From a virus (lineage: Duplodnaviria; Heunggongvirae; Uroviricota; Caudoviricetes): a stretch of 62,843 nt of DNA. The stretch's first letter is position 1. Each line of letters starts with the position of its first letter. A program made the translations under genes and the position numbers. Location: positions 64,001 through 126,843 of the IMG/VR virus record IMGVR_UViG_3300021963_000042; one strand, 5' to 3'. Below are positions 32,546 through 62,843 of the stretch, piece by piece. The notes beneath the pieces were generated by a model, which saw only the letters and a list, made by a program, of their open reading frames with translations, searched no databases and had not been told where the DNA came from.

Positions 32546-32659
32546 AAAAATTCCTTTAAATTAAAAGTTAAACAGTCGCATATTAATGTCGTCACTTTAG
32601 TCAGTACAAGAGCCACAGGGCATCGGTTGCTAACATCGAGCAAAGACTTCACTAATTCG

Positions 32660-32977
32660 TGGTAGGTTATTCTGTTACGAGGAAACCTACCGAAACCCTA
32701 AGCAGCGTTTAGGCTGCTAATGCGTAGACAGAGTCGTTTGCATTTACTTTGTTTGCTTCTTCGACCGAGTTACCCCAATCCTAAAGGCTTTCGCATTGCC
32801 TAGTTGTCCACTTCTGTACTTGTTGCCCTGTCGAAACCTAGTCACCCCCATCAGAAACATACTATTCTTGATTTAATCAAGTGCCTTCGTTAGGGTCTGC
32901 AATAGTATGCTTTTGGTGGAGGTGGGGAGAATCGAACTCCCGTCCAGAACACTTTTCTAGTTGCTTCATACAACCAT
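32660..32977 (-). ncRNA. ssrA: Circularly permuted (two-piece) tmRNA, tag ANDSVYALAA*
   Basis: Minus strand order: acceptor piece with T-arm GGGAG-TTCGATT-CTCCC and CACCTCC-A-CCA (ends 32914); 64-nt intervening hairpin; GGGGGTG-ACTAGGTTTCGAC (starts 32849); tag 32741-32709. The acceptor stem contains G3:U70. The 3' end of the coding piece is approximate. Confidence 0.9.
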
Positions 32978-32983
32978 AAACTT

Positions 32984-33012
32984 ATTATACGCTAACAGTA
33001 TTTATATGTCAA
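32984..33012 (-). promoter_or_regulatory. Composite promoter for tmRNA: perfect TTGACA-17-TATAAT with T4 late TATAAATA in the spacer
   Basis: -35 at 33007-12, -10 at 32984-89, TATAAATA at 32999-33006. Confidence 0.8.
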
Positions 33013-56219: not shown

Positions 56220-56849
56220 TTATTTTATAAAGGTAAACAGAGACTCTAGAGGTTGCCTAACTTTCTTTTCATTAACCATCCAATCATTTTCTACATCTCT
56301 ATAACCTAAAGGAAGTAGTAAGACGACTTTACAATCATTCAAGTTCAAAATGCGTTCTACGTCTTGTACCTCAAAACCTTCTATCGGTGTGGCGTCTACA
56401 CCTTCCATCGCAGCAGCAATTAATGCCGTGCCGATGGCGATATATGTTTGCCTAGATGTATGTGTACTCTGAACATGTGGAGGCATAAGTGGCAATCTTC
56501 TCTTTAGACTTTCTCTATACTTCTCCAATTCAGGTCGAACGTAACCTCTCTCTTTATGAATTAGATCGTAAGCATTGTCTATCTTACCACCAGTATATCT
56601 GCCCCAAGCAGCAAATACAAGTAGATGAGAACAGTCTACAACTTGCGACTGGTTTCTTGCACTACTCATAATCTTTGCTTGTAACTCTTTGTCAGTTATA
56701 ACAAAGATATGATAAGGTTGAAGACCACTAGAAGATGGAGTTAGTCGTATCGCTTCCAAGATCCTGTCGATCTTTTCTTGATCGACAGGTTTGTTTTGGT
56801 CCATCTTCTTGGTGGCATAACGCCACCTCATCGCCTCAAGCAGATTCAT
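56220..56849 (-). CDS. Nitroreductase (NfsB-like NAD(P)H:FMN oxidoreductase)
   Basis: WRYATKKMD, IRLTPSSSGLQPY, NQSQV.DCSHLLVF, YIAIG..L.AAA..GVDATPIEGF, K.R.P. Confidence 0.9.
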   Translation of the reverse strand: MNLLEAMRWRYATKKMDQNKPVDQEKIDRILEAIRLTPSSSGLQPYHIFVITDKELQAKIMSSARNQSQVVDCSHLLVFAAWGRYTGGKIDNAYDLIHKERGYVRPELEKYRESLKRRLPLMPPHVQSTHTSRQTYIAIGTALIAAAMEGVDATPIEGFEVQDVERILNLNDCKVVLLLPLGYRDVENDWMVNEKKVRQPLESLFTFIK

Positions 56850-56850
56850 C

Positions 56851-57324
56851 TTATGCTGCTCGCATGTATGACTTGTACCTGTCTGCAGCATAACTTGCAG
56901 CGAATGCCTTTGGTTTAACCATAGGCACCACGTTGCACATACCACGAATGTAGCCAGTCGCTTCGTTGATAACACAAGAGCTGCCATGCATTTCGTTAGG
57001 GTTGATGTCCAAGTGAACTTCAACTTCTCTATCTTCTAACACATCGTGCAACTTCTGATACAACTCTGCAATCTTGTAAACTTCGTTCATTAGACGCATA
57101 CGTGGTCTGTCTCGTTTCTGATCCCAGTCACGTTCACGAACTACTTCACCGAAGATTTTACAGCCATTGTTACCATTGATATGAACAACAACAACCATAA
57201 TGTAATCTGCGTACCAATCATTTCCTATATTAAATCTTTCGGAATCCCCACCAATATAAATTTTAGTCTCTGGGGTTTGAGCCTCGATAAATGCTTTCAC
57301 TTCTTCAATATCGATTTTACGCAT
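56851..57324 (-). CDS. RNase H-like YkuK family protein
   Basis: KIYIGGDS, VVVH..G.NG.KIF, RL.NEV, EVHLDINP...GS. Confidence 0.75.
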   Translation of the reverse strand: MRKIDIEEVKAFIEAQTPETKIYIGGDSERFNIGNDWYADYIMVVVVHINGNNGCKIFGEVVRERDWDQKRDRPRMRLMNEVYKIAELYQKLHDVLEDREVEVHLDINPNEMHGSSCVINEATGYIRGMCNVVPMVKPKAFAASYAADRYKSYMRAA

Positions 57325-57353
57325 ATTACACCTGTCTTTCTCCTGTTAAAAAT

Positions 57354-57427
57354 TGGAGCGGATAGAGGGAATCGAACCCTACTCTGCGCAGCTTGGAAGG
57401 CTGGCGACACACCTCGTGCTTACCCGC
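57354..57427 (-). tRNA. tRNA-Gly(TCC)
   Basis: Cloverleaf, loop CT-TCC-AA, GGTTCGATTCC T arm, CCA encoded. Confidence 0.9.
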
Positions 57428-57893
57428 AATTATTTGTTGTATACCTTAGTACAACTGATAGTCTCCTACCTTGTTTAACTAAATTCACTGAATGTGTATA
57501 CTTTCTCGTATCATTACCTGCAGGGAACAGAACGAATGTACCCTTTGGGCATTTTAATTGCATATTAAATGCATTAAAAACTAACTCACCACCATCATAC
57601 TCAGATGGGTCGTTCATGAATAAAATTCCTGTTTGCTTCCACTTGTAATCACCATCAAATGATAGACCATCAAAATGTGGAGTCATAGCAGAACCAACAT
57701 TGTATGTTAGAAACTCAAAACTGGATATTTCTCCAAACTTGACAGCTTCTTTATATACAGGTGGATAGGAGATACCACTAACTGTCTTCACATTCTGCTG
57801 GTTTGGGTAATCCTTCGCTTTAGAAATATCGATACTCGCAATGAGTTTATCGATGACTTCCTCACTCACCAGATTTGGAATTATCTTTATCAT
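57420..57893 (-). CDS. 2OG-Fe(II) oxygenase (prolyl-4-hydroxylase-like)
   Basis: Y.VG....PHFD...T.ILFMN....Y.GGEL.F...G..VLFP....H.V..V..G.R. Confidence 0.85.
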   Translation of the reverse strand: MIKIIPNLVSEEVIDKLIASIDISKAKDYPNQQNVKTVSGISYPPVYKEAVKFGEISSFEFLTYNVGSAMTPHFDGLSFDGDYKWKQTGILFMNDPSEYDGGELVFNAFNMQLKCPKGTFVLFPAGNDTRKYTHSVNLVKQGRRLSVVLRYTTNNCG

Positions 57894-58053
57894 CTTCTTT
57901 AAAAATAAGTTTAGCCGAACCAATAGTTCCTGGCATATCTAGCACCTGTTCTGATTTTTTATTCTTACCGAAGATCGTTTCCCAGCGATTGTCGAATTCA
58001 TCCTTACTCACTGCTAATGGTCTTGGTTTATCACCTTTACCGCCATCTGACAT
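57862..58053 (-). CDS. Small conserved phage protein
   Basis: MSDGGKGDKPRP...F..RW..IF. Confidence 0.65.
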   Translation of the reverse strand: MSDGGKGDKPRPLAVSKDEFDNRWETIFGKNKKSEQVLDMPGTIGSAKLIFKEDDKDNSKSGE

Positions 58054-58063
58054 ATAGTTCCTC

Positions 58064-58960
58064 TTATCTTTTTAAGTCGTATATTTCTCGTGCTTCATCA
58101 TAGTTGGCAATTTCACCGCCAAGATCTTTGATGATGCGAACTGCTTTCTGCACTAACTGAGCATTGGTCTCTGCCAACACACCCTTCTCAAGATATACAT
58201 TGTCTTCAATACCTACACGAACATGACCACCATACAACCATGTAGTTGCAACCATTGGCATTTCTTCTCTGCCGATACCGAATGCCGACCACAGAGCATC
58301 ATCTGGTAGCATGCTTTGATAGTAAGATATTGCTTGTGGTGTCGGCATAATACCATACTTAACACCAGTAGCAAATTGCCACAGAGGTTTACCAACAGTA
58401 AACAATCCCTGTGCTTCAAATTCTTTTGCCAGGAAGAAATCTCCAGAACCGAAAATCTCTAACTCAGGTTTGGTTCCAACTGACTGGATCATCTTCAACA
58501 TATCCTTAACTACATAAGGCATATTCATTCGGATGCGTTTTTGATCACCCTCGTTCATTGTGTTGAAGTCGATTGAACAGATGTCAGGTTTAATTTCCAT
58601 AACATGTCTAACTCTAGTTCTAGCATTTAACATGGTAGAGTTAGAAGTACCAGACATCATCCTAACAGATTCTGGGATAAACTTAGCACCTGGACCTGTA
58701 GTAAGGTTGATAATTAGTTTATCGTTCTGTTTTCTAATTAAGTTAACAGTTTCTTTATACAGTTCCAGATCAAAGCTGGAAGCACCAGTTGCAGGATCTC
58801 TAACGTGTAAGTGAACTACAGCAGCGCCAGCATCAGCAGATTCTAATGCAGATGTTGCGATCTGTTCTGGTGTAATCGGCAGATACGGAGTTTGTTCTTT
58901 CGTTGTAACACCACCAGTAATTGCGCAGGTTAAAACTGTTTTCTGTTTTCGTGTAATCAT
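58064..58960 (-). CDS. Beta-keto acid cleavage enzyme (BKACE/Kce, DUF849)
   Basis: LTCAITG...TPYLPITPEQIA..A.E...AGAAVVHLHVRDP, NLTTG, PDICSID..TMN, KPELEIF, GHVRVGIEDNVY. Confidence 0.93.
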   Translation of the reverse strand: MITRKQKTVLTCAITGGVTTKEQTPYLPITPEQIATSALESADAGAAVVHLHVRDPATGASSFDLELYKETVNLIRKQNDKLIINLTTGPGAKFIPESVRMMSGTSNSTMLNARTRVRHVMEIKPDICSIDFNTMNEGDQKRIRMNMPYVVKDMLKMIQSVGTKPELEIFGSGDFFLAKEFEAQGLFTVGKPLWQFATGVKYGIMPTPQAISYYQSMLPDDALWSAFGIGREEMPMVATTWLYGGHVRVGIEDNVYLEKGVLAETNAQLVQKAVRIIKDLGGEIANYDEAREIYDLKR

Positions 58961-59700
58961 ACTAAACCTCTTCCACCATCAATGGCGACAGTAATACCAG
59001 TTGTAAATCTGACTGTTGTTGCATATGCTTCGATCGCATTAGCAACATCTTCAGTGTTAGAACCACGACGTAAAGGAATCTTCATACCAGATTTAATCTT
59101 GTGGTCTTGAGAGAATCCTGAGAAGTTAGAATCTGTAACCACAGGTGGTGCGATTGCGATAACTCTAATCTTCGGAGCAAGTGCTCTTGCCAGATCTTTA
59201 GTCATACCATTGATGGCAGACTTAGATGCAGCATACATAATGTTACTACCATATCCCTTACCCTCTGCAGCACCTGATGATATATTAATCACCAATGCAT
59301 GATTGCTCTTTTTAAGTAGGGGAAGAAATGCTCTAGTGGTTGTGAACTGAGACTTTAGATTGACGCTAAGAATTTTATCAATCAACTCATCAGTCATTGC
59401 ATCTAGATTATGATGTTCAATGATTGTTGTCCAACCAGCATTATTAATCAGAATGTCACACTGTTCAATTTTACTTGCAACAGTGTTAATAGCAGAAGTA
59501 TCTGTAACATCTGCGATATACAGATGTCCCTTTATCGACTGATAGAAACTTCTAACAGAATCTTCATCTGTTCTGGCAATTCCGATAATATGTGCGCCCA
59601 GCTTATGTAGTCGCTTGGCAGTTGCTCTAGCAATTGCACCATTGGCACCAGTAATAACCACTGCTTGTCCAGACAGAGAACTCAATTTCTCAAATGACAT
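58957..59700 (-). CDS. Short-chain dehydrogenase/reductase (SDR)
   Basis: TGANGAIA, LINNAG, INISS, YAASK, IRV.AIAP, TG..VAIDGG. Confidence 0.93.
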   Translation of the reverse strand: MSFEKLSSLSGQAVVITGANGAIARATAKRLHKLGAHIIGIARTDEDSVRSFYQSIKGHLYIADVTDTSAINTVASKIEQCDILINNAGWTTIIEHHNLDAMTDELIDKILSVNLKSQFTTTRAFLPLLKKSNHALVINISSGAAEGKGYGSNIMYAASKSAINGMTKDLARALAPKIRVIAIAPPVVTDSNFSGFSQDHKIKSGMKIPLRRGSNTEDVANAIEAYATTVRFTTGITVAIDGGRGLV

Positions 59701-61126
59701 AACGATCCTTATAATATTGTTTCAAGACAACTTTATCTATTTTACCGCTACCAGTAGTTGGCATCTCATCAAGAAAAATAATTTTTCTTGGATGCTTATA
59801 AGCAGCAGTCTTACTTAGTATATATTCCTTTAACTGTTGTTCATCAACATCAGATGCAACAACAAATGCTACTGGGATAAAAGACTTTATCTCGTCTTCA
59901 ACTGCAATAACTGCAGAATGTTTAACACCTGCAACTTCTTCTAAGAGAGTTTCAATTTCAAATGGGTAAACGATGTTACCGCCAGATTTGAACATTTCAT
60001 CTGCTCTTCCTAAGCAGTAGTAGAATCCATTTTTGTCGACAGTAAATATATCTTTCGTATTATACCATCCATCATCAGAAACAACTTCATTAAACAATTC
60101 TTGTTTATTGTTGTATCCTTTCATGATAGAAGGTACTTTTATGTGAAGAACACTATCTACAAGTTTATATTCAACTCCTGATAACGGATACCCAACGCTA
60201 GTTGTTGGGATTGCTATCTTCTTTGGGTGAGAACCAAACATTCCTGGACCAGTTTCTGTAGTCCCATATGTTACAATAACTCTTGAATTTTTGAAGTAAC
60301 TTTTTATCTTATTGATTATAGATTCTGTAGTGATAGAACTGCCGATTCGAATTAGTCGCACAGAAGATAGATCTCTGTTTTCTATCGAAGAATCATTAAC
60401 CAATAAAGCCATTGCCGTGGTAATGGTTGGAATCAAATTGATTTTGTATTGATCAATCGCATCCAGTGCAAGTTTAGTGTTGAACTTATTTAATAGAACT
60501 ACAAGATTACCACGCTTTAATTGGATTTCAATATTGGCTAAAGCATTCAAGTGATAGAGTGGCGTCATCACCAACACTTTATCTTTCTTGAACGGATCAC
60601 CACCAGCATTAACGTGCATGTCAATAATCCAGTAATGATTTTTATGGGAGTATGCTACACCTTTGGGTACGCCAGTAGAACCTGATGTATACAGATATAC
60701 AGCAAGATCTGGATCTTGCACCATGTCAAAGTCACCAGCATCATAGAAAGAATCTATGTCTGACAGATTGACTGTGTTTACGTTGAACTTTTTATGGGAG
60801 GTTGTGAACAGTAGTTGTGATTTGCTGTCTGATAAAACATATTCAATCTGCTCATCAGTCATCTTGTCGTTGACCAATACAGCAATAACACCAGCCTTCA
60901 ATGCGCCATAATATGCAACTATGTAATTGAAACTATTTTCTGATAGTATAGCAATACATTGCTGTTGCTTTACACCAGCCTTAATTAAACCACGTGCGAA
61001 CCATGAAGACTTCTCATCTAAATCTCTATACGTATAGGTTTTATGTGGTGCGTTATCGCACACCTCAACGAGAAATTGTTTGTTCGCAAAGTTTTTATTG
61101 ATTACTGATGCTAAATTCATAGACAT
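59690..61126 (-). CDS. AMP-dependent acyl-CoA synthetase (class I adenylate-forming enzyme)
   Basis: YTSGSTGVPKG, PLYHLNA, YGTTETGP, GWYNTKD, GRADE.FKSGG..VYP.EIE, P.T..GKIDK. Confidence 0.93.
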   Translation of the reverse strand: MSMNLASVINKNFANKQFLVEVCDNAPHKTYTYRDLDEKSSWFARGLIKAGVKQQQCIAILSENSFNYIVAYYGALKAGVIAVLVNDKMTDEQIEYVLSDSKSQLLFTTSHKKFNVNTVNLSDIDSFYDAGDFDMVQDPDLAVYLYTSGSTGVPKGVAYSHKNHYWIIDMHVNAGGDPFKKDKVLVMTPLYHLNALANIEIQLKRGNLVVLLNKFNTKLALDAIDQYKINLIPTITTAMALLVNDSSIENRDLSSVRLIRIGSSITTESIINKIKSYFKNSRVIVTYGTTETGPGMFGSHPKKIAIPTTSVGYPLSGVEYKLVDSVLHIKVPSIMKGYNNKQELFNEVVSDDGWYNTKDIFTVDKNGFYYCLGRADEMFKSGGNIVYPFEIETLLEEVAGVKHSAVIAVEDEIKSFIPVAFVVASDVDEQQLKEYILSKTAAYKHPRKIIFLDEMPTTGSGKIDKVVLKQYYKDRYVI

Positions 61127-61131
61127 TCAAT

Positions 61132-61207
61132 TGGTGCCCCAAGAGAGACTCGAACTCCCGACCTTCGCATTACTAATGCGCTGCTCTACCAACTGAGCTA
61201 TTAGGGC
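61132..61207 (-). tRNA. tRNA-Thr(AGT)
   Basis: 76-nt cloverleaf; G1-C72, C2-G71; loop TT-AGT-AA; CCA encoded. Confidence 0.85.
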
Positions 61208-61209
61208 AT

Positions 61210-61719
61210 TTAATATTCACTTATTTTAACGTCTTTCAATGCTGCTACAGTTTCATCGTAAGATGCTTCTTTAACACAAAGACTTAAAATTATTCTTTCC
61301 TGATTAGACATGTTCATAACACAATGCTCATGTTTAACATTAAGAATAGTGGGTTTGTATAGTATATATTTCACTTCATCAAGTGTATAGTACAAAGATT
61401 TGTTTTCAACATCATCATAAAGTTTGGATCTATAAAAAGCACGTCCACCTGTATCATTGATTGGAAAATTTATAGAGCACTGTCTGACGTTTTTGTCAAT
61501 GTGCCAGTCATACAATGAGTTTGGTGGATTCTTAATCCATAACGCACTTACGTCGCCGATTAAATTCTTCAGCGACCTAATAAAATTAGAATTGTTAAAC
61601 ATAGTTCCCGCACGATAATCGTTTGGTGATACGTTTAATTTATAGGTAGCATTCATCCCTTCTTTGATGTATCGTGAAGATAGATCAGGAAAATGCTCTA
61701 AGCAATAATAATTTTTCAT
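61210..61719 (-). CDS. Putative 2OG-Fe(II) oxygenase / cupin-like protein
   Basis: YDWHID...SINFP...PTILNV...H.V.N.S...R.ILS; start trimmed to 61719 because the longer ORF overlaps tRNA-Ala. Confidence 0.65.
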   Translation of the reverse strand: MKNYYCLEHFPDLSSRYIKEGMNATYKLNVSPNDYRAGTMFNNSNFIRSLKNLIGDVSALWIKNPPNSLYDWHIDKNVRQCSINFPINDTGGRAFYRSKLYDDVENKSLYYTLDEVKYILYKPTILNVKHEHCVMNMSNQERIILSLCVKEASYDETVAALKDVKISEY

Positions 61720-61727
61720 TTTATCCT

Positions 61728-61802
61728 TGGTGGACCGTAAGAGAATCGAACTCTTACCTCTGACGTGCAAAGCCAGCGTGCTCCCATTATCACTAACAGC
61801 CC
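61728..61802 (-). tRNA. tRNA-Ala(TGC)
   Basis: G3:U70, loop TT-TGC-AC, CCA. Confidence 0.92.
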
Positions 61803-62324: not shown

Positions 62325-62401
62325 TGGTGCCCACGCAGAGACTCGAACTCTGAAAATTTGGCTTCTAAGACCAACACGTATACCAATTCCGTCACATGGG
62401 C
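62325..62401 (-). tRNA. tRNA-Leu(TAG), short variable region
   Basis: Leu-type D arm (A15), A73, loop CT-TAG-AA, 5-nt variable loop. Confidence 0.85.
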
Positions 62402-62402
62402 G

Positions 62403-62843
62403 CAAAAACATTTTTGAGAGTACTGTTATGTGTTTAGTTGGCAGCTTTAAAATCCTGCCACCAGTACCTCAAGCATTTCAATCTATGATGGGTAGTCATA
62501 AATTCTCTCCGAATAAAGGACGCTTTTTTGTCTGGCGATTATCTTCCCTAACAGTTGGGATGCCCAATCTTTTGCTCACACTCTCAAAAATGCTTCCTCT
62601 CTGCGGTGGTAATTATAGCACATCAACATAGATTAATCCTTATTCCAACTCAACTAAGGTTGGGGATTCTATATATCACGCATGCCTTCCACCCACTTCC
62701 CGACCAGAAAGAACTGTCGTGTTGCCAACGCTGGTTAGGTAGACCCATGATTTTACTCATGCCCTATTCAAAGGGAGAACCATCCTACTGATCGTCAGTC
62801 AGTTTCTCTCGTGCGGATCACACTAGCAGTGATTAGCTGCGGG
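62403..62843 (-). ncRNA. Candidate large structured ncRNA in tRNA array (truncated by window edge)
   Basis: No credible ORF; 13-bp long-range stem 62409-21/62580-92 and many nested hairpins. Confidence 0.55.

Follow-up and report, generated by a model that had tools for sequence, protein, structure and literature searches.

Structured RNAs in phage tRNA clusters

The tRNA islands of phages are home to two described classes of large pseudoknotted RNA, GOLLD (RF02032) and ROOL (RF03087; PMC12286853), which are 580 to 800 or more nt long. GOLLD, an 800-nt class that assembles into homo-oligomeric nanocages and has a linker between its 5' and 3' domains, can enclose tRNAs (PMC12286853). Small stable RNAs also occur inside a phage tRNA cluster, the example being rnaC and rnaD of T4 (the species 1 and 2 RNAs, 139 and 119 nt; AF158101, 70908-71171; PMC9697503). 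Directly behind phage tRNA 3' ends lie theta ribozymes, HDV-like double pseudoknots whose tRNA-associated members are defined by a 5-nt window from the tRNA (PMC10879173).

The locus considered here occupies positions 62403-62843 of a 62,843-nt stretch of viral DNA (the window). A sequence-only reading had taken it for one large ornate RNA that continued past the window edge. A structured non-coding locus in a phage tRNA array is indeed present; we conclude with high confidence that it comprises two independent, conserved, pseudoknotted non-coding RNA genes on the minus strand rather than one giant RNA. RNA A (62588-62843, minus strand, 256 nt) consists of a 5' double-pseudoknot core and a long 3' arm and is supported by homologs, the covariance model R1 and flanking tRNAs. 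RNA B (62406-62595, minus strand, approximately 190 nt) has a long closing helix, two long-range pairings and an internal multibranch domain, and is represented by models R2 and R3. The 5' strand of the closing helix of B overlaps the last bases of A.

Locus and genome context

As had been noted from the sequence, the stretch carries no credible ORF: only short ORFs (90 aa or less) overlap positions 62403-62843, and the lengths of the homologs are not bound to multiples of three. The minus strand folds at -122.9 kcal/mol (z -2.3) and the plus strand at -105.6 kcal/mol (z -1.05), G-U pairs are conserved only on the minus strand in the alignments of both RNAs, and all nearby tRNAs are encoded on the minus strand. 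The structured, ORF-free stretch is therefore real and is encoded on the minus strand.

The window ends where the 126,843-nt virus contig ends. A second contig of 37,301 nt (G196, locus L042) has exact 127-nt overlaps with both ends of the first, has the same composition and shares zero genes with it. Joined, the two form a circle of 163,890 nt, a size like that of complete relatives, and from the exact end overlaps we infer that the two IMG/VR contigs represent one circular phage genome. RNA A begins at position 62843, where its 5' end follows the CCA of a tRNA-Met(CAU) gene in the adjoining contig by 2 nt, so the RNA does not run past the window edge. Upstream of A follow tRNA-Met, tRNA-Asp, a 205-nt spacer, tRNA-Tyr, a 230-nt spacer and the conserved 3' core of a GOLLD RNA (L042:821-1279, minus strand; 224 bits against RF02032), approximately 0.7 kb beyond the window edge; the 5' part of this GOLLD seems to extend to about L042:1660. 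Downstream, tRNA-Leu(TAG) (62325-62401, minus strand) starts 4 nt after RNA B and is the first of eight tRNAs, and a promoter-like site heads the array segment that holds A and B. The GOLLD- or ROOL-like context that had been proposed is thus correct in that a real GOLLD stands in the same array, and incorrect for the stretch itself, which is neither GOLLD nor ROOL. The extended sequence contains tRNAs and the separate GOLLD upstream.

Several further features of this genome were recorded. The tRNA-Met(CAU)-like gene (L042:130-204, minus strand) is atypical, with non-canonical D and T loops, was overlooked by ARAGORN and Rfam, and recurs in four other loci (L037, L121, L201 and L217). Both spacers are ORF-free and on the minus strand (230 nt, with a long closing helix, L042:583-812; 205 nt, L042:285-489); they have BLAST look-alikes in approximately 15 other loci each, lack an Rfam match and are probably two further RNA families. 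At window positions 32618-33006 (minus strand) lies a permuted two-piece tmRNA of betaproteobacterial type with the tag ANDSVYALAA, a hint of a betaproteobacterial host. Downstream of the tRNA array, positions 56220-61770 (minus strand) encode a nitroreductase, an RNase H-like protein, a 2OG-Fe(II) oxygenase, a beta-keto acid cleavage enzyme, a short-chain dehydrogenase and an acyl-CoA ligase, and the RNase H-like family is the most frequent neighbour of these tRNA arrays (53 loci).

Distribution of the two RNAs

Homologs were collected by pattern scans of viral contigs and then by covariance models. They divide the stretch: in most, the 5' 256 nt stand alone between two tRNAs, and in others the 3' 190 nt occur alone. 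RNA A was found at 129 loci (101 distinct) by scans and models, and with further copies in whole records the number of phage loci exceeds 130; RNA B is represented by about 44 distinct sequences. Among 44 whole records, which were selected because they hold A or B, A occurs in 38, B in 19 and both in 13, always as one copy per record. Six complete or 95% complete genomes carry A only and one complete genome carries B only. Copies of A and B may overlap or be separated by as much as kilobases; in the window and in L027, L034, L046/L047, L119, L126, L129 and L220 they abut, and elsewhere they are far apart.

Both RNAs keep close company with tRNAs. Of 101 distinct A copies, 59 have a tRNA (11 kinds) no more than 15 nt from their start and 52 have one (12 kinds) no more than 15 nt from their end. 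The end of B lies equally close to a tRNA in 18 of 19 copies, and in no case are the near tRNAs on the opposite strand. Typically, A begins 2-5 nt behind a tRNA CCA; a tRNA directly upstream is missing from approximately 40% of copies. A single copy of A serves arrays of 20-30 tRNAs. In L051, A begins approximately 10 nt behind a perfect sigma-70 promoter, and 9 of the 129 A loci lack any tRNA; A is therefore not bound to one tRNA. No protein family tracking A or B was found among neighbouring genes.

All true matches lie on phage or phage-like contigs, and the carriers are large phages of aquatic origin. BLAST searches of 50,697 GenBank phages with the window stretch and divergent copies of A and B gave no match, and models R1 and R3 gave none over 151 bacterial genomes (from the order of a Bordetella genome) in a search run without a positive control. 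Pattern scans of GTDB returned one true match, on a phage-like contig with a tRNA array in a Haliscomenobacter bin. Two such contigs in this metagenome bin (L220 and L285; contigs C90 and C1 of G045) carry A and B; they are likely binning contamination and give no host assignment.

Other elements recur in these arrays. Another conserved RNA of approximately 170-200 nt with a long closing helix (L287:494-660, L078:3503-3680) often lies directly downstream of A and has BLAST matches in 67 loci, some of them duplicates. A promoter-led spacer RNA family (L040:5567-5747, L058:5500-5744, L072:346-516 and L038:11704-11941) recurs before tRNA-Glu and has a tRNA-like CCA-type end. A B-bearing array contains a tRNA predicted by ARAGORN with the anticodon CUA (L123:7114-7190, minus strand), a possible amber suppressor, and a Cys-Asn repeat protein beside a radical SAM gene (L078:3956-6089) comes right after a tRNA-less copy of A.

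Structure of RNA A

From 5' to 3', RNA A comprises three hairpins, a strand paired to the H2 and H6 hairpin loops, an optional insert, hairpin H7 and the long 3' arm. In 26 sequences aligned independently with MAFFT, 24 of the 59 pairs show changes on both sides and pairing holds in 94% of cells, more than in any of 500 shuffles or any slid control; in 70 further sequences (alignment A6, which is model-fitted) 38 of 52 pairs change on both sides. Related phages inflate such cell counts. By minimum free energy, A alone is no more stable than shuffles (z -0.2), as expected where pseudoknots carry the fold.

The first hairpin, H1 (62826-62840), has 4-6 bp and a variable loop, with two-sided changes in 4 of 4 pairs. 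H2 (62811-62823) is likewise backed by covariation, and its loop (62815-62818) forms pseudoknot 1 (PK1). In H3 (62787-62803) 5 of 5 pairs covary, and a conserved purine-rich junction precedes it. The pseudoknot strand (62779-62785) pairs with the H2 loop through 62782-62785 (PK1) and with the H6 loop through 62779-62781 (PK2). PK1 is complementary in all 96 parsed homologs, in 8 combinations, and in PK2 the GG/CC pairing turns into CC/GG in L130, L131 and L138. A coupled change from A-U/A to G-C/G at three positions suggests, from the alignment, a base triple. The optional insert (62746-62775) forms two hairpins here and in homologs is either absent or replaced by up to approximately 60 nt of other hairpins. 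H6 (62731-62745) presents the loop ACC (62738-62740), the PK2 partner. H7 (62718-62730) is a near-invariant stem with a 7-nt loop, invariant in alignment A2; the invariance of H7 and of the purine strand of the 3' arm is partly imposed by the search pattern, and in homologs found without the pattern (G024, G026, G028, G034 and L240) H7 shows a compensatory change from U-A to C-G. Pairing of the 5' GCU of A with a 3' AGC was discarded, as it conflicts with the covarying H1 and is broken in many homologs.

The 3' arm (62595-62713) begins with an outer helix (62705-62713 with 62595-62603) in which 7 of 9 pairs covary, and continues with a bulged-G helix containing a tandem G-U (62689-62696 with 62606-62612), a conserved A-rich internal loop, a C-stem and a variable cap. 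A switch between U-A and C-G is kept in 92 of 92 homologs, and the bulged-G helix has two invariant G-U pairs. The arm carries a box C/D-type kink-turn (62622-62680; bulge and G-A pairs at 62675-62680, partner strand at 62623-62626) below the variable cap. A script that looked for the C-stem, the 3-nt bulge and tandem G-A/A-G found this motif in the window and in 66 of 92 A homologs, with U-U as the 3b-3n pair in 63. The kink-turn is absent in the remaining homologs (about a quarter) and is therefore optional. It shares with the kink-turns of archaeal sRNAs and snoRNAs the 3-nt bulge ending in U, the tandem G-A pairs and the U-U 3b-3n pair (PMC5689011). RNA A differs from box C/D RNAs in having a single, optional motif that caps a hairpin, with no guide sequences and no C'/D' pair. 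Box C/D-type kink-turns require protein for folding (PMC5689011); no L7Ae gene was found in the joined genome or in the relatives searched.

Structure of RNA B

RNA B folds well above shuffles (z -5.0). Covariation affects 13 of 49 pairs in one alignment and 15 of 21 in another, both far above shuffled and slid controls. The 5' strand of the closing helix (62580-62595) pairs with 62406-62421, and in 34 sequences 12 of 12 pairs change on both sides; across copies the helix measures 12-19 bp, and its ends vary freely in sequence yet keep G-U-tolerant pairing. A hairpin loop (62549-62555) forms a 6-7 bp pseudoknot with 62422-62428 that is 100% paired in 34 sequences. Its three variable pairs all covary though the search pattern left them free, and most chance matches of the same pattern are not complementary at this position. 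The second long-range pairing, a contact of a loop with a strand or with another loop, joins 62563-62566 to a hairpin loop at 62489-62492; read by eye, it appears to be supported by partners that change together between subtypes, more weakly than the first pseudoknot. An invariant UAAA junction and the 3' pseudoknot strand (62422-62436) are stacked directly on the closing helix, the invariance of UAAA being partly imposed by the search pattern. Of the four long-range pseudoknot pairings, two in each RNA, three show clear compensatory changes.

The helices listed by the sequence-only reading fared unevenly. The five that it numbered are perfect inverted repeats where it had placed them. Its 13-bp stem (62409-62421 with 62580-62592) covaries and exceeds chance expectation, since a stem of at least 13 bp arose in 11 of 500 dinucleotide shuffles; comparison likewise bears out the helices at 62787-62799, 62762-62775 and 62746-62761, the last two forming the optional insert of A. 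The helix at 62439-62460 is present as a variable hairpin. Two others are not conserved: the arms of ATCAC/GTGAT (62817-62833) belong to the two covarying hairpins H1 and H2, and the 3' arm of the 6-bp helix 62420-62425/62462-62467 is used by the covarying pseudoknot and closing helix. The covariation that it had proposed looking for is found in both RNAs, far above shuffled and slid controls.

Comparison with known RNAs

At gathering and E-value thresholds, Rfam 15 returned only tRNA and tmRNA for the window and divergent homologs, and over the stretch itself it gave no match at E up to 10, in agreement with the earlier suggestion of a possible new class. Like GOLLD and ROOL, RNAs A and B are phage-encoded, pseudoknotted and situated in tRNA islands, but they are independent genes of 190-270 nt with no sequence or model similarity to either class. 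The ROOL model (approximately 580 nt) gave no match in one search without a positive control; the size of A and B alone excludes a full ROOL.

The T4 RNAs rnaC and rnaD, small and stable inside a tRNA cluster, are the best precedent for the mode of expression, but RNAs A and B are longer and double-pseudoknotted, and the best scores of rnaC and rnaD against models R1 and R3 (5.7 and 8.2 bits) amount to no match. Weak Rfam resemblance to YrlA, a Y RNA that acts with Ro60, falls on tRNAs outside the stretch, and no Ro60/TROVE gene was found in the joined genome or relatives (45 records). RNase P, 6S, SRP, tmRNA and the group I intron core gave no Rfam match and their hallmark motifs were not found by eye; likenesses to twister, HDV, RNase P, SRP and group I RNAs, judged by eye, fail on topology or key bases. 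The UGGN element of T-box RNAs pairs with tRNA CCA. The pseudoknot strand of A reads like UGGN, as in the T-box antiterminator or the L15 loop of RNase P, but its partner is internal, and pairing of this strand with a tRNA CCA was ruled out in favour of the H6 loop.

No published description of A or B was found in the literature; fragments of them may figure in a catalogue of viral candidate RNAs with entries of up to 151 nt (PMC10690425). RNAs A and B are new families among the structured RNAs of phage tRNA arrays.

Expression and function

RNAs freed by maturation of the flanking tRNAs are known from the tRNA cluster of T4. The tRNA-flush ends of A and B, their shared strand with the tRNAs, the promoter-like head of the array and the promoter-led copy of A point to genes in a polycistronic transcript that are released by maturation. 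The comparative data show that both RNAs fold into compact pseudoknotted cores maintained by compensatory changes, have sharp ends and move as units between different tRNA neighbours. A and B would be co-transcribed with the array, in the order tRNA-Glu, GOLLD, two spacer RNAs, tRNA-Tyr, tRNA-Asp, tRNA-Met, A, B, tRNA-Leu, tRNA-Val and so on. Host nucleases would then free them: RNase P would cut where the downstream tRNA begins, and the upstream tRNA would be trimmed at its 3' end. Judged from the arrangement of the copies, such release by tRNA processing is probable.

Once free, the RNA ends would be protected by the closing helix of B and the terminal helices of A, and conserved unpaired faces might bind a host protein or complex, most likely one of translation or of RNA-cleaving anti-phage defence. 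In A, the candidate faces are the purine junction, the H7 loop and the A-rich internal loop over the tandem G-U; in B, they are the A-rich junctions packed on the pseudoknot. Alongside the tRNAs, tmRNA and GOLLD of the phage, the RNAs would serve as a ligand or decoy. Protein binding is favoured because conserved unpaired faces sit on compact cores with a free periphery and nothing downstream is regulated, and because the neighbours (tRNAs, tmRNA and GOLLD) serve translation or counter-defence; phage tRNAs are described as countering tRNA-cleaving defences (PMC10264068, PMC11555353). This protein-ligand role is the least certain step, tentatively put a little short of an even chance, and conserved compact cores suit ribozymes and aptamers equally well. 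For the explanation as a whole, namely trans-acting structured RNAs released from a tRNA transcript and acting as host protein ligands, we regard the case for and against as evenly balanced. A more far-reaching proposal, which we consider doubtful, is that A or B represents a new biochemical class, either a catalytic RNA or a trans-acting decoy or sponge directed against a defence nuclease or signal molecule of the host, and that the arrays are modular cassettes with at least five structured RNAs per transcript (GOLLD, the two further spacer RNAs, A and B).

A new self-cleaving or processing ribozyme that cuts the tRNA precursor in the manner of theta ribozymes would account for the usual position of A, 2-5 nt behind a tRNA CCA and within the 5-nt window of those ribozymes (PMC10879173), with 2 nt in the present genome, and for its compact double pseudoknot with invariant junction bases. 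It is nevertheless an unlikely identity for A (or B). RNA A is four times longer than theta ribozymes, of another topology and not HDV-like, its 5' end being a local hairpin with no G1-led P1 and no conserved J4/2 catalytic cytosine; HDV-like Rfam models gave no match over the stretch. The copies without a tRNA directly upstream, the single copy per array of 20-30 tRNAs and the copy that follows its own promoter also argue against it.

Alternatively, the cores of A and B could be aptamers of a riboswitch-like kind that lack an expression platform and bind a small molecule in trans, such as a nucleotide signal of immunity or stress. The invariant unpaired junction bases, the coupled three-position change resembling a base triple, peripheral helices that are readily gained and lost, and the lack of a regulated downstream gene would all fit; likeness to any Rfam riboswitch is absent, however, and the 3' arm of A, long and conserved, is more suggestive of a docking site for protein, which leaves this reading improbable.

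A role in cis has similarly little probability. Here the closing helix of B would pair with both neighbours, namely the 3' end of the RNA before it and the leader of the tRNA after it, and tune their processing or stability, and in approximately 10 B copies it does reach over the CCA end of the upstream tRNA. In A-B tandems it reaches over the last bases of A, with matching changes at the 3' end of B. Against this, the extension is missing from the largest B subtype, the neighbours vary, and the conservation of the inner pseudoknots would be left unexplained.

Very improbable is the reading of the stretch as GOLLD, as ROOL or as one domain of a single large ornate RNA that runs past the edge, for which the GOLLD in the same array and the ability of GOLLD to enclose tRNAs (PMC12286853) might speak. 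RNAs A and B (256 and 190 nt) lie 0.7 kb downstream of the conserved 3' end of GOLLD with three tRNA genes between, and they occur apart from each other. Model searches failed in either direction: the models of A and B did not match four genuine GOLLD loci, and the 3'-core model of GOLLD (RF02032) did not match A or B at E up to 10 while finding GOLLD 0.7 kb away and in four other records. GOLLD also occurs in only 4 of the 44 records with A or B, always elsewhere, and membership of A and B in GOLLD or ROOL is refuted. Conservation at the DNA level, as an internal promoter (A has the hexamer TATAAT, in this genome with the TG of an extended -10) or with B as a miniature mobile element ending in 13-19 bp terminal inverted repeats, is very improbable too, as TATAAT lies inside a covarying helix, lacks a -35 partner and is altered in 17 of 92 homologs, and the ends of B change sequence while pairing persists with G-U tolerated, in a single copy per genome.

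Significance

Few bacterial and phage RNAs are large, well conserved and complex in fold, and such RNAs have often proved to be ribozymes, riboswitches or the cores of ribonucleoproteins. RNAs A and B lie near GOLLD in a closable genome; their alignments are deep, their pseudoknots are backed by covariation, and their small size permits routine synthesis, probing and cryo-EM. They make the role of stable RNAs in phage tRNA clusters directly testable.
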